Part shown: positions 4,077 to 63,780 of the stretch, one piece after another
Layout: each line of letters starts with the position of its first letter
Numbering within the stretch: position 1 is the first letter of the stretch
Virus record (IMG/VR): IMGVR_UViG_3300028410_000746
From: a virus
Taxonomy: Duplodnaviria; Caudoviricetes
Strand: one strand, 5' to 3'
DNA: 64,000 nucleotides
Position numbers and translations under genes: made by a program
The notes under the pieces: generated by a model
Databases searched by the model: none
What the model was told of the DNA's origin: nothing
The model's input: only the letters and a program-made list of their open reading frames with translations

Positions 4077-4610
4077 TTACAACTCCCCGCGCGCATCTCT
4101 CGCCTCTTTACGCTCGAAGAGAGTGCCAAGGTCTTTTGGGTATCTCTTGCCGTACACGTCGTCGTAGTACATGATCCGAATCGCGTTCAACCCTCTCCGG
4201 AAGTCAAAGCCAAAGCTCGCTGCCGTGCCCTTCGAGAGGTCCATCACTCCTCGCCACTTTCCCTCCTGGCTCCGCCGCGTCTTGATGATCCATTCGCCGT
4301 CCAACATCGCTCCGTAAGGCCCCCTGTCATTCACACGGCACCACGTCCGCGTCCCGGTCTTCTGCTCTTCAACCAGGACCACCGTGTTCAACGGGATGAA
4401 ACGGGACGCACATGTTCGCTGGCTCGGGTCAAACACCTCACCCGTGGCGGTGATTCGCCCGTGGAGGCCTCCGTCACCGCTCCCACCTCCATACCAGGAG
4501 GAGAGCCCCTCCTCTTGTACGGGGGGCGGCTCAAAGTCGGGCACGACCTCTCCACCTCCTTGTGCCTGGAGGTATAGCGCGAACAGGGCTCCCATCTTGA
4601 CTAGACTCAT
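4077..4610 (-). CDS. rlpA: RlpA-like (DPBB) lytic transglycosylase
   Basis: Motifs SWYG, GRITATGEVFDP, TCASRFIPLNT, VNDRGPY and MDLSKGTA. GGAG RBS before ATG at 4610; hydrophobic N-terminus. Confidence 0.85.
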   Translation of the reverse strand: MSLVKMGALFALYLQAQGGGEVVPDFEPPPVQEEGLSSWYGGGSGDGGLHGRITATGEVFDPSQRTCASRFIPLNTVVLVEEQKTGTRTWCRVNDRGPYGAMLDGEWIIKTRRSQEGKWRGVMDLSKGTAASFGFDFRRGLNAIRIMYYDDVYGKRYPKDLGTLFERKEARDARGEL

Positions 4611-18032: not shown

Positions 18033-18057
18033 CCCCTGATAAAGAGAGACGAACCCC

Positions 18058-21000
18058 ATGGCCAAAGATATCCAGGAGCTGATTGTATCGGTTGGCCAAA
18101 GGGGCATGGCTGACCTTGAGCGCACGTTCAAGAACCTGGACGGGGTGGTCGGCAACTCTTTGGAGGGTCTGTCTCGGTACAACCGCAAGCTCTCGGAGGA
18201 CTCGTCCGCCGCTGAAACGCAAGTCAAGGCCATCCACAACACCTTGACGACCCTGGAGAGGGGCATCGCGAGCGCGGGCAAGGGCCTCTCGACGACCTTT
18301 GACGGGCGGCAGATCGCGCAGTTCGACACCAAGCTGCGTGGGATGCGTCGTCAGCTCGACAAGACCCGTGATGCGTTGGAGGGTGCAGCGCTCTCGGGAG
18401 ATAAGGCGACCGAACGCGCCATGCGCACCCGCCTGGGTTCGATCCAGAAGACGATCGACGCTGAGGTCTCGGGGTTCAGCAAGCTCTACACGTCTCATCG
18501 TGAACAGTTCGAGCAGCTCTCCAAGCTCCAGAAGCGAGGCCTCGGCCAGAACGTGGCGGCGGGTGGTAAGGGTGCCGCGAACCTCATCTCTCAGGTCAGC
18601 GGCGGGAACCTCAAGGGCGCAGCGGGTACTCTCGGACAGGCAGGCAAGGTTGGTTTCCAGAGCGCGCAGCGTCGTGCCTTTGCCGGTGCCGCTGGGGGCA
18701 GTGCCGGGGCCGCAGGACTCTCCAGTGCGCTCGGGGGGTTGGCCAAGATTGCAGGACCTCTCGCGGCCGTTGCGGCCGTCGTCGGATCACTGGTCAAGGC
18801 CTTCCTCGACCTGGACGCCAAGGTCAAAGACGTCAACAAGTCGATGCTCAAGAACGTCCCCTTGACGAGCCTCGCCGCCGATGGCTTCAGCGACATGAAC
18901 GACAAGATCGCAGACGGTGAGAACGCGCTGGCGGACTTCCGAAACACAGTCTTGACCGACGCCGACTTGCGCATGCTCGGGATGACTCCCGAGATGATGG
19001 CATCCACGATGGCGGCCATCGAGGAGCAGGCGGGGGGTCTCAGTCAGCTCCGCCGTGAGGGCTTCTCGGCACGCGACGCGTTGGAGGCCGCCCAGATCGC
19101 GGCCCTCAACCTCGGCGTGGACTCCAACGAGACCATGGGTCTGGTGGGGCAGCTCATGGACGTCACCAGCGCGTCGACGGGAGAGGCTCTGTCTTCCTTG
19201 AGTCAGATCGTATCCACGGCGCAAGATGCCGGAGTCTCCACGCGCAAGTTCTTCCAGGTCGTCCAGGGCGTCGTGGGTGAGATGGGGCTCTACAACTACC
19301 GGCTCGAAGAGACCGCCGCGTTGTTCGGGAAGCTCACCACCATCATGGACTCCAAGTCCGCCGAGTCGTTCGCCACGAGCCTGTCTTCGGCCATCAAGAA
19401 CGCCTCGGCCACGGACAGGACCCGTACCTCCTTGATCGTGGGCTCGAAGACGATGGGGGAGATGACCGATCGAGCACAGGCGGCGGCAGCCAGTGGCATC
19501 AACGAGGACGTCCTCGCCAACGCCATGCGCAAGCTCGGGCTTGGCGCTCAGTTCCAGTCGGGTAACGTCGCAGGTTCGATGGGCGGCTTGAGCGAGAGGC
19601 AGCGTCTGGCGGTGATGTCGGCGGTGTCTGATGAGGACCAGGGACAGGGAGAGCGTCTCCGAAAGTTCGAGAACCTGCGTGGCGTCAACCGTAACAACGC
19701 CATGGAAGTCCAGGGTGCTATGGGGGACTTCAACCAGTACGACCAGATGGCTACTAAAATCATGGAGCTTGAGAAGTCCCTGTCGATGCCTCTCTCGCAA
19801 ATGAACTCGGTACTTACGGAGGGTATGGGCACGAACGAAGATCAGCTTCGTATCTTCAAGACCATCCAGGGGGAAGGCAAAGGCGACATGGCCCGGCTTC
19901 AGATGCTTCTTGAGAAGGGCGTCGGCGGGTCCGCCTTCTCGGAAGCGGCCAAGGAGATGGGATACATCGTCTCCGAGGAGAACGGCAAGATCCTGGACTC
20001 TCAGGGTAACGAGATCAAGTCGTTCAATCAGCTCTTCGCCACGATGGACGATGAGAAGGCCAAGGACCTACAGGAGAAGCAGAAGACCCTTGCCGAGAAG
20101 CAGTCGGACCTCCAGCGCACCATGCTCGACACGATCAAGTTTCAGCTCATGGATTTGGTCCAGGGTATTTACACTACGATCCTGGACATTTACGACGCGT
20201 TGGTCAATTCAAAGTTCTTCGGGGGCAGCCAGGAGTCTCGTGACCGTTCGGCCATGGTTCGTAAGGAGATGAAGACTCGGGACCAGATCCGAACGATAGA
20301 TCAGGATCTGGGATTGGCCCGCGAGCAGGGAGATTCAGGACGAGTGCGTGAGCTGGAGGCTCAGAGAGAGGCACTCAAGTCCAGCCTTGATACGCAGCAA
20401 CGGGCCCGAAGGCATCTCAAGAAGAGCGGCTCTTTGGGCATGGCAGGCGCGACGGCACTTGCGAGCGGAGATCCGGCAACCGGAGGCTTGAGCTACGAAT
20501 ACAGCGGAGGCATGGGTCGCCGCTTTGAAGAAGACGAGTATTCAGGCCTCACGATGGGCGACAGCAAGCTGACCGGTATTGTAACCTCTTCCGGGAAACG
20601 AATCACCGGAGAGGATGCGATCAAGGCCTTCGTCGCGGAGCAGGAGAAGAATAAAAAAGCGGCGCAGGGAACAATCGGCTCTCTGATTCAGAGCAAGGTT
20701 GATGACGGCGAGGAGCTGTATCCCGAGGACGCCAAGAATCTCGCGGAGAAGACCAACAACTTGCTGGAGAGTAAAGGGATTCTGCTCGCTCCGAAGACCA
20801 TCAAGGATCTCACAGATGTTATGCTCCAGGCTCAGATCGACAAGCAGGTGGTCAGTGAGATCATGCGCACGACCGGCCGAAGCAAGGCAGACTCCGAGTT
20901 CCTGCTTGGCAAGTACAAGAGCGGTGATGAGGCTGCGATTAATCAGGTCGGCAAGGAAGGGAACCTCCAGGGTATCTTCGCCAACTACGGCGTACAGACG

Positions 21001-21844: not shown

Positions 21845-23059
21845 ATGGCGTCTATTCTTGACGAGCTGGCAGTTCTTACAGGTCAGCAGGCTCTCAACGC
21901 TCAGGCGGACGAGGGCCTTGATCCCAGGACTCGTGATGCCCTTGACAGGAACGCTCAAGCGACGCTCTCTCGCTCCTGGCGCAAGACGCGCTCGGTTCTT
22001 TCGGAGTACGCGAGCCTGATCTCAGGTCAAGGCTACGAGTTCAACGCCCTGTCGAGCCCGGTGGATGCGGTCGCGCACGCCAAGCCGGCCCTGCTCCCCC
22101 TCTTCATTCAGATCATCCCCCCGGACTACTACCCCACGGGCCAGACCCGTACGATCGAGATCTTCTCTCCACAGACCTCCGACACGCAGCTCACGGGATT
22201 CGTGGAGCGTATCCGGCAGCGAGGCTTCTCAACGGACCCTCGCAACCCCGTGTTCACTGGTGGGGTAACCGAGGTGGATCGTATCGTATCCACGAGCCCC
22301 AACGTCAACCAGACGGTCCAGGTTCCCGAGCTGACGCCCGACGATCAGGTCTCCCAGGTGCGACGTACCAGGGACTTCCTGGCGACCACACAGCAGCGAT
22401 ACCGCGACTTCCAGACGGGCTCCCGCACCGCAGCCCGTGATCTGGAGGAGCGTACGCAGCCGATCGTAGAGGACCGCGCCGAGATTGAGGATACGCCGGG
22501 TAAAAATGCAGAGATTCGTCGCGCGCGCAAGGAGAACATCTCCTCGGACCTTGAGTCTTTGCGCCAGCAGGCCCTCAAGCTCCTCGCGTTGCCTCCGGTT
22601 CTCATGTACGTCAACCCCAACGCTCTCACCACCTCCAAGGAGTTCATCGTCTCGGATGGCAACCGTACGCGGGAAGGCTATACGGTCGAGTTCTGGGGAG
22701 AGCAGCAGAACAAGCTGAGCCTGAGTGGCGAGATCGGAGCCTTCTGGACGCACGGTACCAGCCCGTCCGGGCAGCCCACGGGTGGACTCACTGTTCGTTA
22801 CCGTAAGGGCTCCTTTGCCTACCAAAACTTCTTGAGCCTCATCCTCGCCTACCGCAACAACGGCTACCTCTACTCCCAGTCCGAGGTCACCCGGATTGCG
22901 TCGGTAGGCTCGGTCAACCTCTTCTACGACGGGACGCTCTACACGGGTTCCTTCGACACCCTTTCCATCAACCACAGCGAGGACAAGCCCTTCAGCCTCA
23001 CGTACCAGATTGGATTTACCGTTCGATACACCCAGAAATTGGGGACCCTCACACGCTAA
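21845..23059 (+). CDS. Second tube-initiator-like protein
   Basis: C-terminal MYVNPNAL...RTREGYTVEFWGEQ...FYDGTLYTGSFDTLSINHSEDKPF.L.Y...F.V is clearly paralogous to 21285..21833. Confidence 0.6.
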   Translation: MASILDELAVLTGQQALNAQADEGLDPRTRDALDRNAQATLSRSWRKTRSVLSEYASLISGQGYEFNALSSPVDAVAHAKPALLPLFIQIIPPDYYPTGQTRTIEIFSPQTSDTQLTGFVERIRQRGFSTDPRNPVFTGGVTEVDRIVSTSPNVNQTVQVPELTPDDQVSQVRRTRDFLATTQQRYRDFQTGSRTAARDLEERTQPIVEDRAEIEDTPGKNAEIRRARKENISSDLESLRQQALKLLALPPVLMYVNPNALTTSKEFIVSDGNRTREGYTVEFWGEQQNKLSLSGEIGAFWTHGTSPSGQPTGGLTVRYRKGSFAYQNFLSLILAYRNNGYLYSQSEVTRIASVGSVNLFYDGTLYTGSFDTLSINHSEDKPFSLTYQIGFTVRYTQKLGTLTR

Positions 23060-28482: not shown

Positions 28483-28517
28483 TCCTGTACGGGTGTGTCG
28501 TTTTGTCTTACATCCTC

Positions 28518-28546
28518 TATATACCCCAAGGAGGGGGGGCCGTCAA
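28518..28546 (-). promoter_or_regulatory. Sigma70-like promoter TTGACG-N17-TATATA
   Basis: -35 at 28546-28541 and -10 at 28523-28518. Spacer and downstream UTR are nearly identical to the copy at 52.5 kb. Confidence 0.75.
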
Positions 28547-28581
28547 ATAAAGACTTCACCTGATGCCTCGGGAGAGAGGGC

Positions 28582-28611
28582 TTGACACGTCCGGCCCGTT
28601 GAGGTTACCGT
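28582..28611 (+). promoter_or_regulatory. Candidate CRISPR array 1 promoter TTGACA-N18-TACCGT
   Basis: Same architecture as the array 3 promoter (GGCTTGACA...AGGTTACCRT). Confidence 0.7.
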
Positions 28612-28721: not shown

Positions 28722-29368
28722 CCCCTCCCCGTGTACGCGGGGATGTCCCGTGCCTACCCTTGTCTACGAACGGGGCGCGGCCCCCCTCCCCGTGTACGCG
28801 GGGATGTCCCCCTTCGACGGTCACGACGACCATCGACACCAACCCCCTCCCCGTGTACGCGGGGATGTCCCCTACAACCTGGGCTCGGCTCGCTCCAGGC
28901 AAGCCCCCTCCCCGTGTACGCGGGGATGTCCCCACCCACATCACGACCTCGAAGGACTCGTTGGTCCCCTCCCCGTGTACGCGGGGATGTCCCCATGGCG
29001 TCTGTCATGGGCAACAGGATGGACTTCCCCTCCCCGTGTACGCGGGGATGTCCCCGGGTACGTGAGCGCCTTGGCGGAACCCTTCCCCGTGTACGCGGGG
29101 ATGTTCCCCGTGTACGCGGGGATGTTCCCCATTACAGGGCGGCACACCCTAGGTTCATAACCCCTTCCCCGTACACGCGGGGATGTTCCCCAGACACCCC
29201 AGATCCACCTTGGCGTCCAGACCCCTTCCCCGTACACGCGGGGATGTTCCCCTCACACCGAACGAGCGAACGCCAATGTGCCCTTCCCCGTACACGCGGG
29301 GATGTTCCCACCATGCCTTTTTGGACATGCACTGATTGTCGCTTCCCCGTATACGCGGGGATGTTCCT
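28722..29368 (+). CRISPR. Type I-E CRISPR array 1: 12 repeats (one overlapping, last degenerate) and 10 spacers
   Basis: 29-nt repeats CCCCTCCCCGTGTACGCGGGGATGTCCCC start at 28722, 28783, 28844, 28905, 28966 and 29027. Hybrid repeats at 29080 and 29101. CCCTTCCCCGTACACGCGGGGATGTTCCC at 29162, 29223 and 29281; degenerate repeat at 29340. Spacers are mostly 32 nt, plus one each of 24, 29 and 30 nt. Confidence 0.97.
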
Positions 29369-33703: not shown

Positions 33704-33732
33704 GTGTTCCCCGCGCGAGCGGGGAAGTTCCT
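33704..33732 (+). CRISPR. Solitary type I-E repeat with no array
   Basis: GTGTTCCCCGCGCGAGCGGGGAAGTTCCT with intact CCCCGC/GCGGGG stem. No further repeat at +61 nt. Confidence 0.85.
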
Positions 33733-40079: not shown

Positions 40080-40616
40080 ATGAGCGATTACACACTACCC
40101 CCTACCCATGACTTGAGGTACCCCTTCTTGCGTGAGGATAGTGGTGGGGACTACGCCAAGTACAACAACATCCCCTACATCTGGCCGTTTGGCGGGTATG
40201 AGCACTCGTACCCCTACGACACGATGCCCATGCCCCCCTCTACGGCCCCCCCGTTTACGCTCCCTCCCCAGAACATGGCGCCCCCGATCGTGTCCACCTC
40301 TCTCGTGGCGCATACGCTCTACGACCTCCGCATCGTGTGGCATGATGCGGAGAGCGCGTACCTGCAATGCGAGTACGCGATGGCCATGCTTGGCGGTGAC
40401 GATGTGCGACGCGTTCTGCTCGTGCCCATAGCCGAGGTAGGGCTTGTTGATGGGTCGCTAGCCGACCTTACCTTCAGGGCTCAAGACCGTACGTACTGGT
40501 TCACGCGTCCCGAGGAGTCCTACCGATATCAGTATGAGATGGACCGTGAGGGTGGAGAGCCGATCAACCTCGCGTTGTTGCTGTACTCGCTCCGAGACGC
40601 GTGGGCACAGCAGTGA
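40080..40616 (+). CDS. Hypothetical protein
   Basis: GAGG RBS before ATG at 40080. Confidence 0.6.
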   Translation: MSDYTLPPTHDLRYPFLREDSGGDYAKYNNIPYIWPFGGYEHSYPYDTMPMPPSTAPPFTLPPQNMAPPIVSTSLVAHTLYDLRIVWHDAESAYLQCEYAMAMLGGDDVRRVLLVPIAEVGLVDGSLADLTFRAQDRTYWFTRPEESYRYQYEMDREGGEPINLALLLYSLRDAWAQQ

Positions 40617-41104
40617 CCGACATGACGCTCGAAGAATTCTTCGCACTCGAAGAGCACGAGGAGTCCTTGAGACCTCCCCTTCGGCTTGGCATCGTGGGCT
40701 CACGAGACTGGCCCGAAGAGCGCAAGGAGTTCTTCGTGCGCGAGGTCCTGGCGATGCTCAAGCTCCACCCGAGCATCAACACGATCGTCTCGGGAGGGCA
40801 GGCCAAGGGCGTGGACGGCTGGGCAATGCGCATCGCGCGCCACTTTGGCATGAAGCCGGTTGAGCATCTCCCCGCACACTACCTCCCCAAAAACGACCCT
40901 CGGTATCTCCCTTATTCTCCTGGCCACTACCACGCGCGCAACGAGAAGATCGCACAGGACAGCGACCTCATCCTCGCGTTCCGACACAAGATGTCAGGAG
41001 GCACATCCTCGACGATTCGATACGCTCAGAAGCTCTTGCCTCCTGAGCGTGTGATCATCCATGACTGGCCCCTTCGGGCCGCCACAACGGAGCCTATCAA
41101 ATGA
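40613..41104 (+). CDS. SLOG-superfamily (YspA/DprA-like Rossmann fold) protein
   Basis: IVGSRDW, IVSGGQAKGVDGWA, YHARNEKIAQDSDLILAF and SGGTSSTIRYA. Start is GTG 40613 or ATG 40622. Confidence 0.8.
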   Translation: MTDMTLEEFFALEEHEESLRPPLRLGIVGSRDWPEERKEFFVREVLAMLKLHPSINTIVSGGQAKGVDGWAMRIARHFGMKPVEHLPAHYLPKNDPRYLPYSPGHYHARNEKIAQDSDLILAFRHKMSGGTSSTIRYAQKLLPPERVIIHDWPLRAATTEPIK

Positions 41105-41421
41105 GCCTCAAGAACATCACCACCGAGACTCACGACCAGCACGTCTTCTCGGACGACCTCAAGCGCGTTGTCGTCCTGGACTTCTACGCCGACTGGTGCG
41201 GCCCCTGTAAGGGGATCATGCCTCAGGTCGAGAAGATGGCACAGGACCGCAACGCCTCCTTCTTCAAGGTCGACACGGACAAGGAGAACGAGTTGGCCTC
41301 GGAGTACGGCATCAAGAGCCTCCCCACGTTCATCGTGATCCAGGGTGGGGAGGTGGTCGAGTATTGCATCGGCGCCAACCTCGACAAGCTCAACGAGGTC
41401 CTTGACGGCCTGGGTGCTTGA
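41101..41421 (+). CDS. trxA: Thioredoxin
   Basis: 106 aa with VVLDFYADWCGPCK and FKVDTD...ASEYGIKSLPTF. Confidence 0.95.
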   Translation: MSLKNITTETHDQHVFSDDLKRVVVLDFYADWCGPCKGIMPQVEKMAQDRNASFFKVDTDKENELASEYGIKSLPTFIVIQGGEVVEYCIGANLDKLNEVLDGLGA

Positions 41422-52491: not shown

Positions 52492-52532
52492 GTCGTCGTC
52501 TCCTGCGGTGTGTCGTTTCGTCTTACACACCC

Positions 52533-52561
52533 TATATACCACAAGGAGGGGGGGTCGTAAA
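52533..52561 (-). promoter_or_regulatory. Sigma70-like promoter TTTACG-N17-TATATA
   Basis: Near-copy of the 28.5-kb promoter and UTR. Confidence 0.75.
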
Positions 52562-52563
52562 AA

Positions 52564-54034: not shown

Positions 54035-54490
54035 TGGGACATCCCCGCGTGCGCGGGGAACACGCTCCCCTTCGATACAGAGATCTTCTTTCTACCGGGA
54101 CATCCCCGCGCACGCGGGGAACACGGGTAGAACAAGAAGATGTATGAGAGGGGATCCGGGACATCCCCGCGCACGCGGGGAACACCGGACGAGCATGGGG
54201 AGACGTATTCGCCCTACCGGGACATCCCCGCGCACGCGGGGAACACTTGAAGCTGGAAGGATGCACGAGATGTGCGTGCGGGACATCCCCGCGCACGCGG
54301 GGAACACACAGGTGTGATCACAAGAGCATGTCGCCTCATCGGGACATCCCCGCGCACGCGGGGAACACGTCAAAGCTGGTCACCTTTGGAGCGTGAACGG
54401 CGGGACATCCCCGCGCACGCGGGGAACACCATGACACCGACACACCCGCACTTGGTGCATCCGGGACATCCCCGCGCACGCGGGGAACAC
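54035..54490 (-). CRISPR. Type I-E CRISPR array 2: 8 repeats and 7 spacers of 32 nt
   Basis: Repeat GTGTTCCCCGCGTGCGCGGGGATGTCCCG (minus strand) with a 61-nt period; plus-strand starts at 54096, 54157, 54218, 54279, 54340, 54401 and 54462. Terminal variant at 54035-54063. Confidence 0.98.
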
Positions 54491-54600
54491 TCTTCAAATG
54501 TTCAAGCCTTCGGAAGTGTACCTAACCCCCTGTATTCGCTCAGGAATTCTGTTGGCATGGGGTACACCGTTTTACTTTACCAAATCGTACCCTGCGGTAC
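54491..54600 (-). promoter_or_regulatory. CRISPR array 2 leader
   Basis: AT-richer segment between the cas8e-cas11 stop and the first repeat, ending ...TTGAAGA|GTGTT. Candidate TTGTAC-N17-TAAAGT promoter. Confidence 0.8.
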
Positions 54601-54609
54601 AAGCCTGAA

Positions 54610-56817
54610 TCAGGAGGCCTTCTTGGTGGGGGCGCGGTAGTAGGTGCGCGTCCACTCCATCTGCGTCTGAGAGCCCCAGGTGAGGAGGCTCAGGATGAGG
54701 TCGTTGGCGTCGGCACCCTGACCCTCAATGCGTCCGAGGACGTTGCGGAGCTGGCGCCAGTGGCCGTTCAAGGTGCCTCCCGAACACAGGCGCTCGAACG
54801 AGCGCTCCTTGATGTCACGAGACTGCGCGAGGACGCGCGCGACGGGGCGGTTGCCCTTGAAGCCGGTGGGCTTGAGGCCCGCGAGCAGGACCGCCAGGAG
54901 GAACACGCGCTCCTGCAACTCGGGGGCGTTCTCACCAAGGTTACGCTCCACCACCTTCTCCAGGGCCTTCTCCAGCAGGATGGCGGGGCGCATGTAGCGT
55001 ACGTCCTGGAGGTTCTTGGCGCGAGAGAGCGCGACGCGGCCGGAGCCCTTGTCGTGGTGGAGGTTGCGCCACCACTTGTGGACCACGGAGAGGATCTCAT
55101 CCTTGTGGGCGTATACGATGTTGTTCATGGGGTTCTTCTCTCTCTTGGTGGAGGTGCCGCAGAGTTTGAGGAGCTGCTTTTCGAGCCCGGCTCGTTCCCT
55201 CACGGCGGATGTGATGGTGCGGGTGTTCATGCGCGATTTGCGAGTGACACGGCCTCCAACGAGGGAGTCGAAGATCGTGAGCGCGGTGGTCGCGAGGAGG
55301 CGCTTGTAGGGCGTATAGACCATCTCCTCAAGCTCCTCCCGGTTGGTCGTGAGCTTGACCTTGGCGAGCGCGTCGTATGCAGCCTGTTCGGTGTGTGACC
55401 ACAGCTCGGAGTTGTTCCGGCCTCCCAGGCAGGCGACCTTCGCGCGGAGCACCTTATCCACCTCGGACGTGAGCTTGACCAGCGCCCCGAAGGTGTCCTC
55501 ATCACGCAGAGCCTGTGAGCCCTCGAAGATGAAGATGTACTTCTCGAAGAAGCTCACCGTCTTGCCCGCAAACATGTTGAATCCGAAGACACGCAGCGGG
55601 GGAAGCCCTCCCCATACCTCATCCCAATGCTCCGCGACCTCATCGTACAGGAAGGCCTTGCGCTTGGTGTGGGTGATGATTGGGGGCGTGTGGAGGGTCT
55701 CGGAGTAGGCGTGGGAACCCAGAACGTTCCACGTGCGCCTGTTGGTGACGGTCTGCACAGCGCGGACATCTTTCACATCTTTGGGGGTCCACTTGCCGTT
55801 GACGCCCATCGTCTTGAGGTTCTTGAGGGTGGTGGCGTTGTTGGGGAGCTGCCAGACACCCGACATGGGGATGCACTGACGAGACCCCGGCAGACCTTCC
55901 CACTTCTCGGACTGCGCTGTGTAGCGCTGCCGGTTGCCCCAGGGCTGCGCATCCACGTAGTCCAGGAGCCCGTCCTCATCCGGCTCCGGCAGGACCCACT
56001 CACGCGTGAGGTGCCAGAACGCGGTCAAGGGGTGGTAGTCCAGGTCGTGAGCGCGCCACCCCTCGATCTGACTCTCTTCGACCCAGGGGAACTCGAACTC
56101 GGGGACGGTCTCCTGTCCCCACAGAGCGTTGATTTCAGGTTCAGTGAGGATGTTGTTGAGGACCTCCTCGCAGAGGTCGCGGCCGCTGAAGACGTACCAC
56201 AGGCTGCCGTTGTTTCCGTAGCCGGGTCGCGATGTGCCACGTGAGAACTTGTTCCCCGCGTCCATGCGAAACTCGGCCGCCAGGATGAACGCGATGGCGT
56301 CCCCAGGCGTCAGACGCTGCCGGGGATCACGGCCCAAGTCCATGCTGAAGGGGAGCGGCCGCGTGACCTTCTCCGAGTCGAAGTCGAAGCCTGAGGAGGA
56401 GGACCCCAGCGCGTGCGTGTTGAAGCGGTAGCGGCCTATCTCAGTGGCGCACGGCAGGTCGGACTTCTTGATCTTTCTGATATCTTCGGTCCACTCGCGC
56501 AAGGCGGGCGTGGCCTGGAACGCACGGTACCCCGGCCCGTAGACGTCGAAGAAGTCTTCCTCACTCAGAAAGCGCTTCTTGAAGTCGAGGTTCTCGCCGC
56601 GCGTCAGGTGCATCTCGACCCACTCGTCGTCGTCCTTGGGCGCGGCCACCGTCTGGACCAGTGCCTGAATGAAGTGTCGGACGCCCTCATTCATTACGGA
56701 GTGGGGGTAGTCGAGCTTGAGGCCGGGTTCCGTGAACTCGTGCGGTCGGATGAGCTTGGACTTTCCCGTGGCGTCCTGAACCCGAATCCAAGCGTCGGTC
56801 ATGAGATTGAGTGACAT
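54610..56817 (-). CDS. cas8e-cas11: Type I-E Cas8e (Cse1/CasA) fused in frame to Cas11 (Cse2/CasB)
   Basis: N-terminus MSLNLMTDAWIRV, LTPGDAIAFIL...GRDLCEEVLNNI and YHPLTAF are Cse1-like. The last 172 aa from Met564 (KWWRNL...GRVALSRA...ERSFERL...WTRTYY) are Cse2-like. No stop separates them. Confidence 0.85.
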   Translation of the reverse strand: MSLNLMTDAWIRVQDATGKSKLIRPHEFTEPGLKLDYPHSVMNEGVRHFIQALVQTVAAPKDDDEWVEMHLTRGENLDFKKRFLSEEDFFDVYGPGYRAFQATPALREWTEDIRKIKKSDLPCATEIGRYRFNTHALGSSSSGFDFDSEKVTRPLPFSMDLGRDPRQRLTPGDAIAFILAAEFRMDAGNKFSRGTSRPGYGNNGSLWYVFSGRDLCEEVLNNILTEPEINALWGQETVPEFEFPWVEESQIEGWRAHDLDYHPLTAFWHLTREWVLPEPDEDGLLDYVDAQPWGNRQRYTAQSEKWEGLPGSRQCIPMSGVWQLPNNATTLKNLKTMGVNGKWTPKDVKDVRAVQTVTNRRTWNVLGSHAYSETLHTPPIITHTKRKAFLYDEVAEHWDEVWGGLPPLRVFGFNMFAGKTVSFFEKYIFIFEGSQALRDEDTFGALVKLTSEVDKVLRAKVACLGGRNNSELWSHTEQAAYDALAKVKLTTNREELEEMVYTPYKRLLATTALTIFDSLVGGRVTRKSRMNTRTITSAVRERAGLEKQLLKLCGTSTKREKNPMNNIVYAHKDEILSVVHKWWRNLHHDKGSGRVALSRAKNLQDVRYMRPAILLEKALEKVVERNLGENAPELQERVFLLAVLLAGLKPTGFKGNRPVARVLAQSRDIKERSFERLCSGGTLNGHWRQLRNVLGRIEGQGADANDLILSLLTWGSQTQMEWTRTYYRAPTKKAS

Positions 56818-56858
56818 GGTGTGTCTCGTAGGTAGAGAGGGGAGGTGGGGAGGCGCGC

Positions 56859-57569
56859 TCAGAGCGTGTGCATGTGGGCGCTAAACTCGCGCCGCACCTT
56901 GTGGGACCCTTGACGGGTCAGATCGTGGGGCACATCACGACGGAAGGTTGACCGTCGGCTACCTTCGAGGCCAAAGTCTTCATCCCAGAACACCTGTCCC
57001 GGCACCACGGTTCGGTCAAGGTAGTAGAAGCTACTCGCCACGGCCTCCTCCAGACACTCACGCGGCGTGGTGGACTGTAGGACCCGTGGATTGAGAGGCG
57101 CGCTTGGCGGACAGCTCTTGCGGCCAAAGTAGATAGGCCAGTAGGGACGCTGGAGCGCCGCGATGATACCGTCGACGTCCTCGTCGGGTACCTGGAGCAG
57201 GACCACCCAGGTCTGGTCCTGGAGGTAGTACCTCTCCGAGGTCAGGGAGTCCGTCTTGGGGCTTTGCGGGTCCAGCTCCTCCTGGCGCGTGGTCACGTAG
57301 CCCTTGAAGCAGCGGATGAGGTGGTAGTCTCGAAGCGGCGGGGGGCTCACCGAGGCTCCCTCAAGCTGGAGCTGGACGCACGCCATCTTGATGGTGTTTG
57401 CCAGCCTCTGGTGGTGAGCCTGATCGTCACGCTCGATGCCTTGCGCGCACGCGATCATCCCGAGTATGGCCGATTTCGTCGGGCTCTGGTCCGTCGTGCG
57501 CAGCGCCGCGCGCGCCGCGTTTCCGAAGCTCATGAGAGGGGCTCGAATGTCGCAGGCGAGTGTTTGCAT
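56859..57569 (-). CDS. cas5e: Type I-E Cas5 (CasD)
   Basis: APLMSFG...RTTDQSPTKSAILGMIACAQGIER, RYYLQD and IYFGRKSCPPSAP. AAGGAGG RBS before ATG at 57569. Confidence 0.95.
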   Translation of the reverse strand: MQTLACDIRAPLMSFGNAARAALRTTDQSPTKSAILGMIACAQGIERDDQAHHQRLANTIKMACVQLQLEGASVSPPPLRDYHLIRCFKGYVTTRQEELDPQSPKTDSLTSERYYLQDQTWVVLLQVPDEDVDGIIAALQRPYWPIYFGRKSCPPSAPLNPRVLQSTTPRECLEEAVASSFYYLDRTVVPGQVFWDEDFGLEGSRRSTFRRDVPHDLTRQGSHKVRREFSAHMHTL

Positions 57570-57633
57570 AGGTACCTCCTTTGTGGTACTCAAAAGATAC
57601 CACAAGGTTCAAGATGGGGTCAAGTGGTTCGAT

Positions 57634-58365
57634 TCAGAGGGCCACAAGGGCGGCGGCGGGCTTGAGAAGGACAAGGCCGGCCCCGAAGGCCTTGCCCCGA
57701 CCGATGCCGTTGCGCCACAGGGTCACGAACTTCTCGGGGTCGGTGACCTCGACGCGCGCCTCAAGCTGCACGAAGTCCATCGTAATGGGGTTGCGCCGTC
57801 CCACGCCCTGCTCGGAGAACACGGGGGTCAAGGCGGTGACCCTGTGCAGCTTGAAGCCGCCGTCCTCCGAGCGCCTCTCAAGCCACTCGAAGAGGAGGGC
57901 GTCGAGGTCGCGAGGCGTCTCCCCATTCGCTTCGCACATGAGCTTCTCGTAGGTCTGGAGACCCAAACGCTTGGAGCGCCCCTTGGGCACGATCCGCTCG
58001 TCACGGGTACAGACGGTGGCGTTGACCCATGCTCGGAGGTCGAGGCCGGCACCCATGTGCATCGTGGGCTGCTCGATCGTCTTGGTCAGAAGCTTCACGT
58101 AGCCGTGAGGGTCCGAGGGGATCTCCGTGGACTGGATGTAGAAGGAGGAGCCCTTGAAGGGGGTGAACATGAAGGGTCGGTCTTTGCGGTCCTCCACCGG
58201 GTCGAAGAGGTCCCAGACGAACTGGTGTGCGGTGTAGATGCCCTCGGACGTGTAGCGGGAGAGCTGCTCGATTCCCTTGGCCGTGAAGGTGGCGCGTGAG
58301 ATGTAGAGAGGGGTCGAGGTGGGGGGTGTGGTGGTGTTGAACGGGATGTTGACTTGCGTGCTCAT
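57634..58365 (-). CDS. cas6e: Type I-E Cas6e (Cse3/CasE)
   Basis: AHQFVWDLF and the C-terminal G-loop GIGRGKAFGAGL. GGAG RBS before ATG at 58365. Confidence 0.95.
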   Translation of the reverse strand: MSTQVNIPFNTTTPPTSTPLYISRATFTAKGIEQLSRYTSEGIYTAHQFVWDLFDPVEDRKDRPFMFTPFKGSSFYIQSTEIPSDPHGYVKLLTKTIEQPTMHMGAGLDLRAWVNATVCTRDERIVPKGRSKRLGLQTYEKLMCEANGETPRDLDALLFEWLERRSEDGGFKLHRVTALTPVFSEQGVGRRNPITMDFVQLEARVEVTDPEKFVTLWRNGIGRGKAFGAGLVLLKPAAALVAL

Positions 58366-58441
58366 TGATAACTCCAAAAATACCCCCGCACGAGGCGGGG
58401 AGGTTGAGAGGGGACCCCCGCGTGAGCGGGGAAAGGGGCAC

Positions 58442-59788
58442 TCACTCGGCGGCGGCGGTCTCGGAGGCCTCCACGGCGATACCGAGCGTCTGGTAGATGG
58501 CATCCACGATGTCATCCAGGGTCGTACACACCTCGCCGCCCGACTCCAGGGCCGTGAGGTCCTTGGTCGAGGACCACGTGAGGACACGCTCATGGTCGAC
58601 GCCCACGCGGGTCACGATGCGGTTGTGGTGGTCCTCCAGGCGCGTGAGGGCCATCTGAAGAGGATCGTTGGACTCCACAGGCACCAGGAACGCGTCGGTG
58701 TACTGAGTGTTCTGGGTCTCCCCGATGGTCACCATCAGGTAGGGGGACGGGATGCTCGCAGCCATCGTGGACTGGTTACCCGAGGGGCGCACCATCACGA
58801 GAGCCTTGACGAAGGCGTGGATGGTCTCACGGAGGAGGTCCTCCTGACCGCTCCCGAAGCGGCGAGCCAGCTCACCGATGTGGAGGCCCACGTAGGCGTA
58901 GTTGACGCCCGAGGTGAAGCTCTTGTGGCCCATATGCGAGGCGCCCGTATTGGAGTTGAAGCAGTCCTGAGCCGAGAAGAAGTCGTCCTCCTCGGGCATC
59001 ACGCCGACGCCGATGGTGTGCGCGAACTGGACGCAGGCCGCTTCATTGTCCTGTGCGAGCTGCGCGACCATGCGGCCGAAGAGGCTCACGTCGACGTTGG
59101 GCATCCTCGTGAGGTCCGTGAAGCTCTTCGCGGTCTCAGTCAGGCTCTCGAAGACGACGGAGGGGTCCGTGAAGTCCAGACCCACCAGCGCCTCGAAGCC
59201 CAGCGTCAAGACCTCCTGCTCCGCCTGCTTGAGCTTGATGGCCGAGCCGAACATGCGGCCGTCCTTCTTGTCGCTCTTTTTGTTCTTCTTCTTCTTGGTG
59301 TCTCCTTCGGACTCGTTCGACTCGTCGTCGAGAGCGTCCTTGGTCGAGTACGGCGTGATGCCTCCCTCGGCGTACAGGGTACCATCCGCGATGAGGCCCT
59401 TGAGGAGCGTGAGAAGCGCCGCTTCGGTCTTCTTGGTGAGCTTGGCGCCCTTGAAGCACTGCGTGAAGAAGTTCGGCGTCGTCATCATGTAGGCGAGCAG
59501 CGCGGCGGCTCGATACGACCTCTCAGCCTCCTGGCCCGCCTCGACGGCCTTCTCACTCTTGAAGACCAGGAACGATCTCGTGTTGTCGCTCATGACCTTG
59601 CGCTGACGGAGCACATCGAAGTGCATGGAGGCACGAATCGCCGCCTTCTCCGCTTGGCTGGAGATGCGGTAGCGCATGGCGTTCCCGAAGAAGGAACTCT
59701 TGGGGTTACCCGCGTCATCGCGGTTGATGTTGCTGGGGGGCAGCACACCGAGCATGTGGAACTGGAGCTTTGTTTTCACGTTCATCAT
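58442..59788 (-). CDS. cas7: Type I-E Cas7 (Cse4/CasC)
   Basis: PPSNINRDDAGNPK...RYRISSQAEKAAIR, DVSLFGRMVA, ACVQFAH and DDFFSAQD. Confidence 0.97.
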   Translation of the reverse strand: MMNVKTKLQFHMLGVLPPSNINRDDAGNPKSSFFGNAMRYRISSQAEKAAIRASMHFDVLRQRKVMSDNTRSFLVFKSEKAVEAGQEAERSYRAAALLAYMMTTPNFFTQCFKGAKLTKKTEAALLTLLKGLIADGTLYAEGGITPYSTKDALDDESNESEGDTKKKKNKKSDKKDGRMFGSAIKLKQAEQEVLTLGFEALVGLDFTDPSVVFESLTETAKSFTDLTRMPNVDVSLFGRMVAQLAQDNEAACVQFAHTIGVGVMPEEDDFFSAQDCFNSNTGASHMGHKSFTSGVNYAYVGLHIGELARRFGSGQEDLLRETIHAFVKALVMVRPSGNQSTMAASIPSPYLMVTIGETQNTQYTDAFLVPVESNDPLQMALTRLEDHHNRIVTRVGVDHERVLTWSSTKDLTALESGGEVCTTLDDIVDAIYQTLGIAVEASETAAAE

Positions 59789-59858
59789 GTCTGGACTCTC
59801 ACTACAGTGGGTAAAAGGACCTTCGAGCTTTCAGAGGCTTCGTGCCTCGACGGAAACG

Positions 59859-59915
59859 ACACTAACTCCGATGTTAGAGCAGTGTCAAGCGGTTTCTTTA
59901 ACGCTTGACACTGCT
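59859..59915 (-). promoter_or_regulatory. Candidate Cascade operon promoter TTGACA-N18-TAGTGT overlapping a 14-bp perfect inverted repeat
   Basis: Arms AGCAGTGTCAAGCG (59878-59891) and CGCTTGACACTGCT (59902-59915). -35 at 59888-59883 and -10 at 59864-59859. Confidence 0.75.
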
Positions 59916-59935
59916 GTGCGGTATGAAAAAAAGAC

Positions 59936-62566
59936 CTAGAGGACTTGGAGTCCCAGGATGTGGTCGTAGATGAGGGTGACGGATACCGGGGCGCCCTTGG
60001 GGGAGAGCTTGGTCATGTTGACCCTCCACGCGTCGGCGGGTGCGCTGAGGTCGTCCACGGTCACGATCAACACGGAGTCGGTAGAGTGGAACGGGAGCTG
60101 CGCCAAAAGTTCGTGCTGCTCCGGGCTCGGGTCGAGCCGCTCTCCGGCCATGTACATGGGGATAGCGATGCCAGAGGCCTTGATGCCTCCGTTGTGGATA
60201 CGCCGGAGTCGATCGCCGTCAACGAAGTGGACCTCCCAGATGCACGTAGGGATGGCGTCTCGGGTGTGTATGGCCACGTTCTTACCCCACTTGCTGACCG
60301 ACTCACGGTAGCTGCGGGTGAAGTCGAGAGACCCCAAAACAGCCGATGCTCGCGTCTCCTGGTCACGGGCGGTGGAGGCTTGGTGCGAGCGGGCCAGACC
60401 GGCCGGAATCAGTGCGTTGATGTCGTCCAGGATCTCACGCGTATGGGTGGGAAGCTCCCAGGACCTCAAGGCACACATCGCCGCGCTGGCGTACACACGG
60501 CCTGCATCCCCATAGACGTAAGATGTCCCCCCATGATGAGGGGAGCCGCTGAGCCATTGAGCGTGTGGAGTCCCGGCCAAGGAGGGCGTGAACAGGCCCA
60601 TCTCGACGTGCACCTCTTCCCCACTCTCGTGACGCAGGACGCGACCCGAGCGCTGAATCAGGAGGTCGGCCTCGCATACATCGGAGACGCCCCAGTCAAA
60701 GCTGACATCCAAAGACTCCTGGAGCACCTGCGTGCATATGACGATGTAGCCCTCACGCTCTTGGGGATCGGCGCCCTTACCGAAGCGACGCAGCACCTCG
60801 GCGTCACGTACCTCACGGTGTCCGACCGTGTAGCGAGAGTGCAGCAAGAGCACTCGGTCATACCCTGACAAGGCTTCATAGGCCGCACAGGCGGCGCGCA
60901 CGGTGTTTCGGAACCACACCACCGCCTCACCTCGGTTGGCTCGCCGGTGCAGCTCTTCCACGATGGGGTCGAGCCCACGCCGATCCTCTTCAAAGACGTT
61001 CCAGTGCACGTGCCGGATCTGGTGTGCGTCCACCGAGACCACGTTGATGTGGCCGCTGGAGCTGACGTGCGTGAGCGCGGGCAAGGGGACATCGGGGAGG
61101 TCTACAACCTCTCCTCGATACGCGGAGGCGAGCGCGCGGCGTGTCTTGGAGTCGCAGGTGGCGCTCATGGCGATCACGGGCTGTCCCTGTCGCCCGCAGT
61201 AGGCGAGCAGGTTACAGAGCAGAGGGAGCATGTGAGCGTCGAAGGCGTGGACCTCATCTATCAGAAGCACGGTACGGGTGAGCGCGCTCAGTCGCATGGG
61301 CGCAAAGTATCGCCCGATCGTCGCCAGGAGGGCTTGGTCTATTGTGCAGACATTGATTTGCGAGAACATGCTCTGTCGGGAGGACTTGAGCAGCCACTCG
61401 GAGGCGCTAATCAGGCCTCCATTCGAGTTGCGTTGAGCCTTCCACGGCTTGAATTCACTTCGAGTCGAGTGAATGAGCGCCATCGTGACGGGCTCATCAA
61501 AGGTTGCCTCCGTCCAGGCGTGCGCACGCCCGTAGAGGCCGTTGGCGGTAGCGCGAGTAGGCAACGCCAACGTCAGCCCTTTGTAGTCGCCATCACGCAT
61601 CATCTGACGCGCGAGCGCGAGCCCTACCTCCGTCTTACCCGCCCCCGTAGAGGCCTCGATGAGGACAAACCCGTCCGCAGAACTCAAGAGGGTCTCAGCA
61701 CCTACCTGGAGAGGCCGAGGTTCCCAGGTATCGTCGAGGAGACCGCTCCAGAAGGAGTAGGTGGTAGAGAGGGGCGTGTAGAGGATCTCCACGTCTGTAC
61801 ACGCCCTCTCCGCTTGAGGCTGTGCGATGGTCTCCCAATAAGCTCTCGGGTCCATACGCGCGCCACGCAGCGGGAAGTATTCAGGCGTGGAGCCCAGCCA
61901 ATCCGAGATCATCCCGACGCCCGCCAGGAGGTAGCTCGCGAAAGGCAGGTCCGGAGGGTTGGAGTAGTCGCCACGCATGGGTCCAAATACGCCCTGGATG
62001 ATTTCGGAGAGGTACGCAGTCAGGCGCTCGTCGCACCCAGGCACTCCCCACTGGAGCTGAGCCGTACGTGGGGTGGCGCCTTCTCGCTTCTGATGAGGCA
62101 AGGCGTAGCCGTGATGGCTCAGCGCGCTATGCAGCAGCGTCGTGATGTGGCGTCGTTCCTGACGCCCAGTACCGCTCTTGAGGTACTCCCGGATCACGTT
62201 CCTGCGTTCCCATCCCACCAGATCGTGACGGGCTTCGGTCTCACGCGCACCATCAGGCTGGGGGGTGATATCCAGGAGCGTACAGGCGGGTGCGCTTCGA
62301 GCCTGGAAGTTGTCCGTGAGCTTACCGATGTCATGGCAAGCGTAGAGCATGGGGAGGTCATGCCACAGGTCGTACATGCTCACACCCAAGGCCTCCGACA
62401 AGGGACGCCACCAACGCTCCTCGTGCCTGAGCAAGTGATTCACGACCGCCGCGACGTCGAGGTTATGATACACCACGCGGTGAATGGCAGTCACGGCCTC
62501 TTGTGAGCCGGGAGGCTGGTCTGTCTTGGCCCAACAGTCCCACATACCGATAGGTTTGGTCGTCAT
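59936..62566 (-). CDS. cas3: CRISPR-associated Cas3 (HD nuclease plus SF2 helicase)
   Basis: YHNLDVA, CHDIGK, SHHG and SDWLGS (HD domain). PRPLQ, ASTGAGKTE, TIDQ, DEVH, SAT, LHSRY, TQVLQESLDV and QRSGRVLRH (helicase). Confidence 0.98.
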   Translation of the reverse strand: MTTKPIGMWDCWAKTDQPPGSQEAVTAIHRVVYHNLDVAAVVNHLLRHEERWWRPLSEALGVSMYDLWHDLPMLYACHDIGKLTDNFQARSAPACTLLDITPQPDGARETEARHDLVGWERRNVIREYLKSGTGRQERRHITTLLHSALSHHGYALPHQKREGATPRTAQLQWGVPGCDERLTAYLSEIIQGVFGPMRGDYSNPPDLPFASYLLAGVGMISDWLGSTPEYFPLRGARMDPRAYWETIAQPQAERACTDVEILYTPLSTTYSFWSGLLDDTWEPRPLQVGAETLLSSADGFVLIEASTGAGKTEVGLALARQMMRDGDYKGLTLALPTRATANGLYGRAHAWTEATFDEPVTMALIHSTRSEFKPWKAQRNSNGGLISASEWLLKSSRQSMFSQINVCTIDQALLATIGRYFAPMRLSALTRTVLLIDEVHAFDAHMLPLLCNLLAYCGRQGQPVIAMSATCDSKTRRALASAYRGEVVDLPDVPLPALTHVSSSGHINVVSVDAHQIRHVHWNVFEEDRRGLDPIVEELHRRANRGEAVVWFRNTVRAACAAYEALSGYDRVLLLHSRYTVGHREVRDAEVLRRFGKGADPQEREGYIVICTQVLQESLDVSFDWGVSDVCEADLLIQRSGRVLRHESGEEVHVEMGLFTPSLAGTPHAQWLSGSPHHGGTSYVYGDAGRVYASAAMCALRSWELPTHTREILDDINALIPAGLARSHQASTARDQETRASAVLGSLDFTRSYRESVSKWGKNVAIHTRDAIPTCIWEVHFVDGDRLRRIHNGGIKASGIAIPMYMAGERLDPSPEQHELLAQLPFHSTDSVLIVTVDDLSAPADAWRVNMTKLSPKGAPVSVTLIYDHILGLQVL

Positions 62567-62829
62567 GTAGCTCTCAGCTTGGCGAGATGAATGGCGTGCT
62601 TGTATTTGGCCGATTCCACGTAGGTGGAGCTTCCCAGGAGCTTCGAGCCTCCTGACGAAGAGAAGAAGCGGGCGAGGTAGGGGGGGTTCTTCTTGTAGGA
62701 GGTCTCGGAGCGGTGAATCTCCATACGACCCTCGGGGACCTCACATGTGAAGTAGCGCGTAAGCCCAGCGGGACCGTGAACTTCCCATTGCAGCGTCTTG
62801 GAGAGCTTCTCGGCAGCCGTGATTTCCAT
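62563..62829 (-). CDS. Small hypothetical protein translationally coupled to cas3
   Basis: 88 aa; GAGG RBS; its stop overlaps the cas3 ATG. Confidence 0.65.
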   Translation of the reverse strand: MEITAAEKLSKTLQWEVHGPAGLTRYFTCEVPEGRMEIHRSETSYKKNPPYLARFFSSSGGSKLLGSSTYVESAKYKHAIHLAKLRAT

Positions 62830-63197
62830 CAAGCCACCTCTACGGGCGCGCCGCACAGGTGGCAGAACTGCGAGGCGGGGATCAGCTCAGTCCCGCAGTT
62901 GTGGCAATACACGGCCTTACGGGGACCCTCCACCTCGAACTCCCCGAGCAGGTCGAGGTACGTATCATCCCTGCATCCCGCCAAGGAGAGTCGAATGCCG
63001 GGGAGGAGGTCGTCGTGGTGGTAGTCATGACCCTTGTGCAACAAGGTCGCGTTGTCTGCGTTGGGGGGACCCTGGAGGTCATTGACCCTACGCCCTCCAG
63101 GCTTGAAGACCCATAGCCGCACGGGGTACCCTCGATCAAACTCCAGCTCTCCGGTGCGACCTGTTGTGGATGCGACTTCATACTCATGATGTTTCAT
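62829..63197 (-). CDS. Double zinc-ribbon domain protein
   Basis: C-terminal YCHNCG...QFCHLCG; GGAGG RBS; stop overlaps the next ATG. Confidence 0.7.
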   Translation of the reverse strand: MKHHEYEVASTTGRTGELEFDRGYPVRLWVFKPGGRRVNDLQGPPNADNATLLHKGHDYHHDDLLPGIRLSLAGCRDDTYLDLLGEFEVEGPRKAVYCHNCGTELIPASQFCHLCGAPVEVA

Positions 63198-63200
63198 ATC

Positions 63201-63247
63201 TCAACCTCCTGTGGTCTGTATATACCACAGGAGGTTGAAGCTGTAAA
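63201..63247 (-). promoter_or_regulatory. Candidate cas3 operon promoter TTTACA-N17-TATATA inside a 15-bp perfect inverted repeat
   Basis: Arms TCAACCTCCTGTGGT (63201-63215) and ACCACAGGAGGTTGA (63224-63238). -35 at 63247-63242 and -10 at 63224-63219. Confidence 0.8.
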
Positions 63248-63580
63248 AGGAAAACCCCACGTGTGTGGGGAAGGGGCGCGTAACTGCGGGGGAGGTCGTA
63301 GGAGCAGGGGAACATCCCCGCGTGTGCGGGGAAGGGCAACTGTATCAACTCAGCGTCCGGGAGTACGTGGGAACATCCCCGCGTGTGCGGGGAAGGGTTT
63401 TTGGGCGATCTTGCCCCTTTGGATGATCGGGGAACATCCCCGCGTGTGCGGGGAAGGGTTGAGCGTGTCGGCGGCGTCGTCGAGGGCGTAGGGGACATCC
63501 CCGCGTGTGCGGGGAAGGGGCGCTGACGCGCTCCCCCAAGACCGTGATCGTGGGGACATCCCCGCGTGTGCGGGGAAGGG
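63247..63580 (-). CRISPR. Type I-E CRISPR array 3: 6 repeats (terminal one degenerate) and 5 spacers of 32 nt
   Basis: Repeat CCCTTCCCCGCACACGCGGGGATGT(C/T)CCC on the minus strand; plus-strand starts at 63552, 63491, 63430, 63369 and 63308. Degenerate repeat at 63247. Confidence 0.97.
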
Positions 63581-63720
63581 TCTGTGCCAAGAAGTCACAT
63601 GCGTTAGATCGCGTAAGTATTCGGTTTTCAAAGACTTCTCAGATCCAGCGCCGTTCGGTGCCACCCTTGAGCGACCTCTCCGAGGTCCTTATGGTAACCT
63701 TGGAGAGGGAGACCTGTCAA
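63581..63720 (-). promoter_or_regulatory. CRISPR array 3 leader and promoter TTGACA-N18-TACCAT
   Basis: 63581-63637 matches the array 1 leader at 50 of 57 positions. -35 at 63720-63715 and -10 at 63696-63691. Confidence 0.85.
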
Positions 63721-63751
63721 GCCTCTTTCACAGCCTCGAAGAACACGGGGA

Positions 63752-63780
63752 GGGGACATCCCCGCGTGTACGGGGAAGAG
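63752..63780 (-). CRISPR. Solitary type I-E repeat upstream of the array 3 promoter
   Basis: CTCTTCCCCGTACACGCGGGGATGTCCCC on the minus strand, preceded by TGGCACAGA, the same 9 nt that end the array 3 leader. Confidence 0.85.

Follow-up and report, generated by a model that had tools for sequence, protein, structure and literature searches.

Huge phages that carry CRISPR-Cas systems mostly lack Cas1, Cas2, and Cas4 (Al-Shayeb et al. 2020, PMC7162821; reviewed in PMC11656645). A type I-E system of this kind lies within a 64,000-nucleotide stretch of DNA from the tailed virus IMGVR_UViG_3300028410_000746 (the whole stretch is referred to below as the window). Like the systems in the 2020 survey, for which phage-versus-phage targeting was proposed, it is found on a metagenomic genome of more than 200 kb, has conserved catalytic residues, and shows none of these acquisition genes in the 72.5 kb covered; unlike the type I example described there (an I-C variant that has no Cas6 and in which a helicase replaces Cas3), it has the full type I-E set with Cas3 (PMC7162821). 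The type I-F system of the Vibrio phage ICP1 is a second point of comparison. There, too, a phage carries type I arrays and an intact interference module and deploys them in a conflict with another genetic element, but ICP1 is an ordinary-size phage that has a single locus and its own adaptation module. A third is provided by plasmid type IV-A3, a mobile-element CRISPR without Cas1-Cas2 of its own, whose arrays are still updated because the adaptation module of a host type I-E system serves as donor in trans (PMC11656645; 10.1101/2023.06.23.546257). Type IV-A3 has no Cas3 and silences rather than cuts, and trans-adaptation is experimental there, whereas for the phage discussed here it is deduced from the comparison of arrays.

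When set beside canonical type I-E systems (E. coli K-12, Thermobifida fusca), the locus has the same Cas families, the same 29-nt hairpin repeat, 32-nt spacer, and 61-nt period (with about 22 spacers in the window), and the same dependence of the last repeat base on the spacer. It differs in that no cas1/cas2 is found beside it, the gene order is rearranged, Cas8e and Cas11 are fused, and Cascade is extremely divergent; in addition, there are many small dispersed arrays with at least two leader families, and in relatives arrays lie between the cas genes. A huge-phage CRISPR system without adaptation genes is known; what distinguishes this one is the full type I-E set with Cas3, the order, the fusion, the interleaved arrays, and the evidence for spacer turnover. 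The favored reading, held with moderate confidence, is that the locus is a self-contained type I-E interference module (Cas3 plus a Cascade of Cas7, Cas6e, Cas5e, and Cas8e::Cas11) on a freshwater huge phage of ~373 kb, with spacers being added in trans.

The interference genes and the phage that carries them

On the minus strand, the order of elements is solitary repeat, leader, array 3, a 122-amino acid (aa) open reading frame (ORF), an 88-aa ORF, cas3, cas7e, cas6e, cas5e, cas8e::cas11, a 119-nt leader, and array 2. The five cas genes are as follows.

59936-62566, minus strand: cas3, 876 aa, with an N-terminal HD nuclease and an SF2 helicase (PF18019, 96.6 bits; TIGR01587, 190.7 bits)
58442-59788, minus strand: cas7e, 448 aa (PF09344, 197.6 bits; TIGR01869, 182.1 bits against a cut-off of 178.05)
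57634-58365, minus strand: cas6e, 243 aa (TIGR01907, 72.4 bits against a cut-off of 45.2; PDB matches to Cse3 and CasE)
56859-57569, minus strand: cas5e, 236 aa from an ATG with a good Shine-Dalgarno sequence (TIGR01868, 142.1 bits against 68.95; also an ENA gene call)
54610-56817, minus strand: cas8e::cas11 fusion, a single 735-aa ORF (Cse1, residues 4-500; Cse2, residues 579-729)

Family assignments were made by Pfam and NCBIfam profile searches against curated cut-offs, and all five genes score above them (the fusion through PF09481 and TIGR02548), giving a complete type I-E gene set of Cas8e, Cas11, Cas7e, Cas5e, Cas6e, and the Cas3 HD-helicase. The initial annotation, made from the letters of the window, had listed these genes as having intact-looking motifs, and the profile scores are joined in bearing this out by the alignment of Cas3 and the catalytic histidine of Cas6e. 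In particular, Cas3 aligns to the Thermobaculum Cas3 structure (PDB 4Q2C, E=2e-52) and contains all of the expected motifs: those of the HD nuclease (H..D, HD, HH, D), Walker A (GAGKT), DEVH, and QRxGR. Cas6e retains the invariant Tyr21, the catalytic His47 (YxxHQ), and the C-terminal Gly-rich loop of the bacterial enzymes. Cas7e is ~90 aa longer than is typical, and its closest relative outside the genome shares 33% identity with it. Judging by the retained motifs, the module may be active.

The fusion protein is also divergent. Its Cse1 part scores 67.6 bits with PF09481 (cut-off 24.7); with the NCBIfam equivalog TIGR02547 it reaches 41.6 bits against a cut-off of 70.05, over the N-terminal 127 aa only, and Cas8e is therefore regarded as a divergent member of its family. 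The Cse2 part, which is a domain here and not a separate gene, scores 38 bits with TIGR02548 (cut-off 28.5); to our knowledge, cse2 is a separate gene in the known type I-E systems. The fusion has no sequence match in PDB, and a word-based homologue search returned only the protein itself. An exhaustive phmmer search of 1.84 billion representatives yielded just three other fused Cse1-Cse2 proteins, two from the clade of this phage and a third from a locus that has the canonical order together with cas1-cas2. (An independent Cse1-Cse2 fusion of this latter kind, 688 aa long, is encoded on contigs L075-L077 in a different, phage-like context; the type I-E locus around it keeps the canonical order and includes cas1 and cas2, and the contigs show no cas3.)

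In types I-B, I-C, and I-D, cas8 genes encode Cas11 by internal translation. The fusion resembles these genes in being one ORF for the large and small subunits with an in-frame methionine before the Cas11 part; it differs from them in that internal initiation is here a suggestion from sequence. The methionine in question, Met564, lies just before the Cas11 part, is aligned with a methionine of the homologue on a related contig (L073), and is preceded by a purine-rich tract like those that precede cas3 and cas7. It is thus a candidate internal start, from which free Cas11 may be made by separate translation.

The canonical order cas3-cas8e-cas11-cas7-cas5-cas6e is not kept in this locus, which instead reads cas3-cas7-cas6e-cas5-cas8e::cas11. 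The same order is repeated in L073 and in the cas locus (L079) of a complete relative, the IMG/VR genome UViG_3300021978_000001 (G001), and two short contigs show it in part: L003 (cas3-cas7) and L074 (cas5-cas8e::cas11). The rearranged locus is a conserved variant and no one-off.

Between array 3 and cas3 there are two further genes: a 122-aa zinc-ribbon ORF (62829-63197, minus strand; PF13240, 30.1 bits), which is the first gene downstream of array 3, and an 88-aa ORF (62563-62829, minus strand) that has no family match and whose stop overlaps the cas3 start. Both are translationally coupled to cas3; the ORFs that occupy their positions in relatives are not detectably homologous to them.

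Ownership of the locus by a phage is supported by the identity of the contig, by collinearity with a complete phage genome, and by the tail-like proteins of the window. Cas3 is encoded on a lake-water metagenome contig in ENA (ERZ27315555 k141_181878), and a 14,065-nt overlap between the window and a fetched 22.6-kb stretch of this contig is 100% identical. At 373,477 bp, the contig exceeds the 200-kb size that defines huge phages. The part of it that was covered corresponds to window coordinates 1-72,566, that is, the 64-kb window plus 8.5 kb beyond. The initial annotation had allowed that host housekeeping genes just past 64 kb would make the locus host-owned; the 8.5-kb flank instead contains a further CRISPR array and ORFs with no Pfam match on record, and no housekeeping gene is found anywhere in the 72.5 kb.

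The complete relative, G001, was recovered by searching IMG/VR with an alignment of three Cas3 sequences, after which the genome was taken whole; single-protein scans of IMG/VR with Cas3 alone or with the fusion alone gave no match. The 437,490-bp genome carries direct terminal repeats, and CheckV gives it a completeness of 100%. Homologues of 26 non-cas ORFs (among the 51 window ORFs compared) are present in it at 26-88% amino-acid identity; they are collinear with the window except for one weak match, and the cas operon is at the same position. The Cascade subunits are less similar (27% for Cas8e::Cas11, 32% for Cas7, and 38% for Cas6e, versus 56-72% for tail genes), and this far greater divergence of Cascade than of the flanking tail genes suggests either fast evolution or replacement of the effector. 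Another candidate, the published huge phage LR745208.1, was rejected as a close relative, having two weak gene matches only.

Within the window, most ORFs have no Pfam or PHROG match, but a 727-aa ORF at 35124 resembles the gp5/Phage_base_V baseplate hub or spike (feature score 0.97, the protein clusters that neighbor it being 95-100% viral), a 1075-aa ORF at 18058 resembles tape-measure proteins, and a 1242-aa ORF bears an SLT domain and is tail protein-like. Thus, the tail module that the initial annotation had placed next to the cas genes is present, whereas its description as contractile is not borne out by G001, where the sheath family PF04984 is not detected. Its call for a capsid and a terminase is likewise answered in part: G001 has a match to an HK97-type major capsid gene, while the terminase families PF03237 and PF03354 are not detected there, a result that is read as divergence, not real absence. 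The few profile matches in the window, which leave its direct virion evidence thin, together with the undetected terminase and sheath families, are what could be cited for placing the locus in a bacterial chromosome, a prophage remnant, or a megaplasmid instead of a free phage. Such a placement is highly improbable, given the collinearity with a complete, terminally repeated genome with an HK97 capsid match, the hub- and tape-measure-like proteins, whose neighbors are 98-100% viral, and 72.5 kb without a housekeeping gene; the conclusion that a phage carries the complete interference module is supported. The tail-gene region also encodes a SLOG/DprA-like protein and a thioredoxin (40601-41421); a JGI contig of 397 kb, which may be another relative, encodes a homologue 55% identical to the thioredoxin.

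Arrays, leaders, and the missing adaptation genes

The repeats of the system are distributed over the window as follows.

28722-29368, plus strand: array 1, 12 repeats including one overlapping half-repeat, in two repeat blocks
54035-54490, minus strand: array 2, 8 repeats and 7 spacers, directly downstream of cas8e::cas11, with its own 119-nt leader; its repeat begins GTGTT
63247-63580, minus strand: array 3, 6 repeats and 5 spacers
65713-66310 (window-equivalent coordinates): array 4, 10 repeats, 1.7 kb past the window end
33704-33732, plus strand: solitary repeat beginning GTGTTCCCCGCG, with a degenerate 3' handle
63752-63780, minus strand: solitary repeat that shares the leader-junction sequence and lies 200 nt upstream of array 3
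63691-63720, minus strand: promoter-like site TTGACA-N18-TACCAT in the array 3 leader
28582-28611: promoter-like site TTGACA-N18-TACCGT of array 1
58376-58437, minus strand: degenerate repeat and terminator-like hairpin with a U-run, in the cas7-cas6e gap

Repeat finding recovered all three arrays and both solitary repeats that had originally been noticed, and added to them the relic repeat in the cas7-cas6e gap and the fourth array. All repeat variants form the hairpin typical of type I-E, with a stem of 7 bp and a loop of 4 nt. The last base of the repeat varies with the spacer (C, G, or T); in the type I-E system of E. coli, this base is derived from the protospacer-adjacent motif (PAM).

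Arrays 1 and 3 are headed by one leader family, and in both a newer repeat variant forms a block beside the leader; in array 3, for example, the leader-proximal repeats end in GTCCCC and the distal ones in GTTCCC. Such a block would be expected if the first repeat were copied again and again. The terminal repeat of array 3 is degenerate and doubles as a terminator-like hairpin. In array 1, a 24-nt spacer precedes two repeats with an 8-nt overlap (29056-29129; the overlapping half-repeat is at 29080-29129), which is probably a scar of deletion or recombination. Inversion of the hairpin center is common among the repeat variants: the terminal repeat of array 2 (54035-54063) has GCGCACGC where others have GCGTGCGC. 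In G001 (e.g., 17788-18125) and L073, the stem is preserved, in some cases by compensatory changes, but nearly every repeat has a different loop. The window contains two copies of a 56-nt sequence, 88% identical, one just upstream of the array 1 leader (28492-28547) and one 1.5 kb before array 2 (52507-52562).

Scattered arrays are also seen in the complete relative. G001 has ~15 of them, mostly within 20 kb of the cas operon, with others at 110, 127, and 405-408 kb. In relatives, mini-arrays also occupy the cas7-cas6e gap, the cas6e-cas5 gap, and the position behind the fusion gene, at the following coordinates.

L073, 5107-5321 and 6092-6361: interleaved mini-arrays
L079, 14215-14552, 15322-15655, and 18724-19176: interleaved mini-arrays

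Each of these is preceded by a conserved junction that begins GTGACA. Since the relatives bear true mini-arrays in the cas7-cas6e gap, the relic repeat found there in the window is taken as the remnant of an array. Mini-arrays can regulate cas genes (10.1101/2023.03.03.530964), and the element at 58376-58437 could lower the single-copy Cascade subunits relative to Cas7 or could be a site for Cas6e cleavage within the operon mRNA.

The adjacent cas1e-cas2e module that is a canonical feature of type I-E loci is not found. Hidden Markov models (HMMs) for Cas1e and Cas2e were built from bacterial type I-E loci whose ORFs had been verified with Pfam. Although these recovered seven of seven positive controls, the best E values were 0.63 (Cas1) and 0.74 (Cas2) when all six frames of the window with its 8.5-kb extension (coordinates 1-72,566) and of the contigs from relatives were searched. 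As had been stated from the sequence alone, the window contains neither gene, and neither is located in the 8.5 kb just outside it, where a cas1/cas2 pair would have spoken against the original interpretation. In the complete G001, no Cas1 and neither Cas2 family is detected, whether by Pfam or by the purpose-built HMMs. (G001 does encode a Cas4-like PD-(D/E)XK nuclease at 259094-259435, which at 20.8 bits is below the family cut-off and lies far from the cas locus.) The conclusion that the phage has no Cas1-Cas2 of its own is supported by 72.5 kb of the 373,477-bp contig and by the whole of this relative.

Spacer targets and the protospacer-adjacent motif

The initial annotation had proposed matching the spacers against viral, plasmid, and host sequences. 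None of the spacers of this phage could be matched to a protospacer in the window and the related loci, G001, INPHARED, or PLSDB, or in IMG/VR with five spacer patterns: INPHARED gave repeat-like or chance matches only, and PLSDB gave matches to repeats only. The bacterial genome records that were examined contain no match either, the spacers never having been searched against bacterial genome collections.

The relatives have been more informative. A spacer of L003 (2851-2884) matches the cas3 gene of L073 (1324-1350) and of G001 (21887-21913), where 26 of 27 positions agree and the flank is AAC; the same spacer matches the cas3 of L003 itself (4062-4088) at 27 of 27, but there the flank is CCC, which is the end of the repeat. 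This looks like the targeting of a rival's cas3 with protection of the phage's own copy. Similarly, a spacer of L073 (109-140) matches a small ORF upstream of cas3 in L003 (3412-3434) at 23 of 23 positions with an AAT flank, while its match within the genome of L073 itself (668-699) has 3 mismatches and an ACT flank. Coming from the relatives, this evidence points to rivalry among sister phages and to an AAN PAM: the two protospacers are flanked by AAC and AAT, compared with the AAG-type PAM of type I-E. The PAM of the window phage is, by extension, probably AAN.

These matches also bear on the reading that the host, and not rival phages, is the main opponent of the arrays and solitary repeats. 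Two routes can be imagined, one in which the repeats give rise to RNA decoys that soak up the Cas proteins of a host type I-E system, and one in which CRISPR RNAs (crRNAs) guide Cascade to host genes or defence islands. Both have precedents, in that solitary viral repeats can act as RNA anti-CRISPRs (Racr) (PMC10651486), and the CRISPR of ICP1 is aimed at a host defence island, while huge-phage spacers can target host genes (PMC7162821, PMC11656645). The solitary repeats at 33704 and 63752 would fit a host-directed role, as would the hairpin, which is the widespread type I-E consensus common to Actinomycetota arrays and to a solitary repeat on an Allochromatium plasmid. However, a full Cascade and an intact Cas3 have been kept, which decoys would not need; the only targets found for the clade lie in sister phages; and the bacterial records mentioned above gave no spacer match. 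A search for a self-complementary, crRNA-like pseudo-spacer beside the solitary or terminal repeats of the window found none. A mainly host-directed role is given little probability, and competing mobile elements, above all related huge phages, would be the likely targets of the module, the cas loci being among those targeted in sister lineages.

Array renewal and a model of the system

How the arrays change can be seen by comparing L073 with G001. Over the cas genes they show 93-96% identity, and it is exactly at the arrays that the alignment is interrupted. In homologous arrays, the unit at the trailer end and the degenerate terminal repeat are all that the two have in common; at the leader end no spacer is shared, and the number of spacers differs too. 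Such a pattern is classically that of polarised acquisition after the two separated, and the lineage has no integrase of its own. By the same comparison, the spacers of the window phage were most likely inserted at leader ends by the Cas1-Cas2 of a host type I-E system acting in trans. The suggestion, made at the outset, that the phage borrows host adaptation is in this way indirectly strengthened by the leader-end novelty; the other half of it, a donor, has not come to light, as neither a host nor a matching bacterial array was found.

The search for a host took several forms. Matches to a repeat pattern came mostly from Actinomycetota arrays, all at least 3 nt different from the phage repeats; an Actinomycetota host was dropped because the pattern was biased by the 3' handle and because the same hairpin is present as a solitary repeat on the plasmid of Allochromatium, a member of the Gammaproteobacteria. 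A scan of JGI metagenomes for the exact repeat family produced one ordinary bacterial type I-E locus, and the thioredoxin homologues carried no host signal.

Several observations weigh against a working module supplied with spacers in trans. The spacers of this phage have no protospacer in the sets listed above, and no host, or bacterial array with identical repeats beside cas1-cas2, was identified. Cascade is very divergent: outside the genome, nothing exceeds 33% identity to Cas7, and the fusion has no PDB match. Neighboring repeats in the G001 subclade have unlike loops, and this holds even for units gained recently; moreover, some of the loops in G001 and L073 are mutual reverse complements, and the hairpin center is inverted in the terminal repeat of array 2.

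The last of these observations are more readily understood if interference is real but whole repeat-spacer cassettes enter and change places through homologous recombination between repeats, with no integrase acting on the phage genome. The donors could be the many arrays of the phage itself, those of co-infecting relatives, or host type I-E arrays. Simple first-repeat duplication by Cas1-Cas2 does not predict that loops should differ within single arrays, including units gained since divergence; together with the several variants that are reverse complements at the hairpin center, among them the terminal repeat of array 2, this leaves the route a serious rival. It is also favored by the truncated spacer and overlapping half-repeat of array 1, which suggest recombination scars, by the different positions of arrays in the window phage and in G001, and by the spacer against the clade's own cas3, which is what an immunised host would acquire. 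Even so, uniform 32-nt spacers, the spacer-linked last base of the repeat, and the AAC/AAT flanks indicate that a type I-E integrase made the spacers somewhere, and the conservation of trailer ends with novelty at leader ends is the pattern of polarised integration; a bacterial array with identical repeats, from which cassettes might have come, was not found. On balance, recombination as the sole means of renewal is rather unlikely.

The favored model, a self-contained interference module with spacers added in trans, would operate as follows. The several arrays would be transcribed from their own promoters, and Cas6e would cleave the transcripts at the 29-nt hairpin repeats to give crRNAs. Cascade, possibly with free Cas11 arising from the internal start at Met564 within the fusion gene, would locate matching DNA beside a PAM, probably AAN, and Cas3 would then degrade the matched DNA. 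New spacers would most likely be inserted at the leader ends by the type I-E Cas1-Cas2 of the infected cell.

A wider picture of the clade can be offered tentatively and is, as a whole, doubtful. In it, freshwater huge phages would possess a private, streamlined type I-E system whose mini-arrays are updated by the Cas1-Cas2 of any host and are aimed largely at sister phages, including their cas3, in order to disarm the CRISPR of a rival. The intergenic arrays and relic repeats would be points of Cas6e cleavage or termination that set the ratios of the subunits, and free Cas11 would be supplied by internal initiation.

For the biology of huge phages, the question to which these findings speak is how phage arrays stay current without acquisition genes. 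The clade is a clean natural test case, as it provides both a complete 437-kb genome without Cas1/Cas2 and a near-identical sibling contig whose homologous arrays differ only at their leader ends. Further points of interest are a compact type I-E effector in which Cas8e and Cas11 are naturally fused, an unusual operon with arrays set between its cas genes, and sequence evidence of rival phages targeting each other's cas3.

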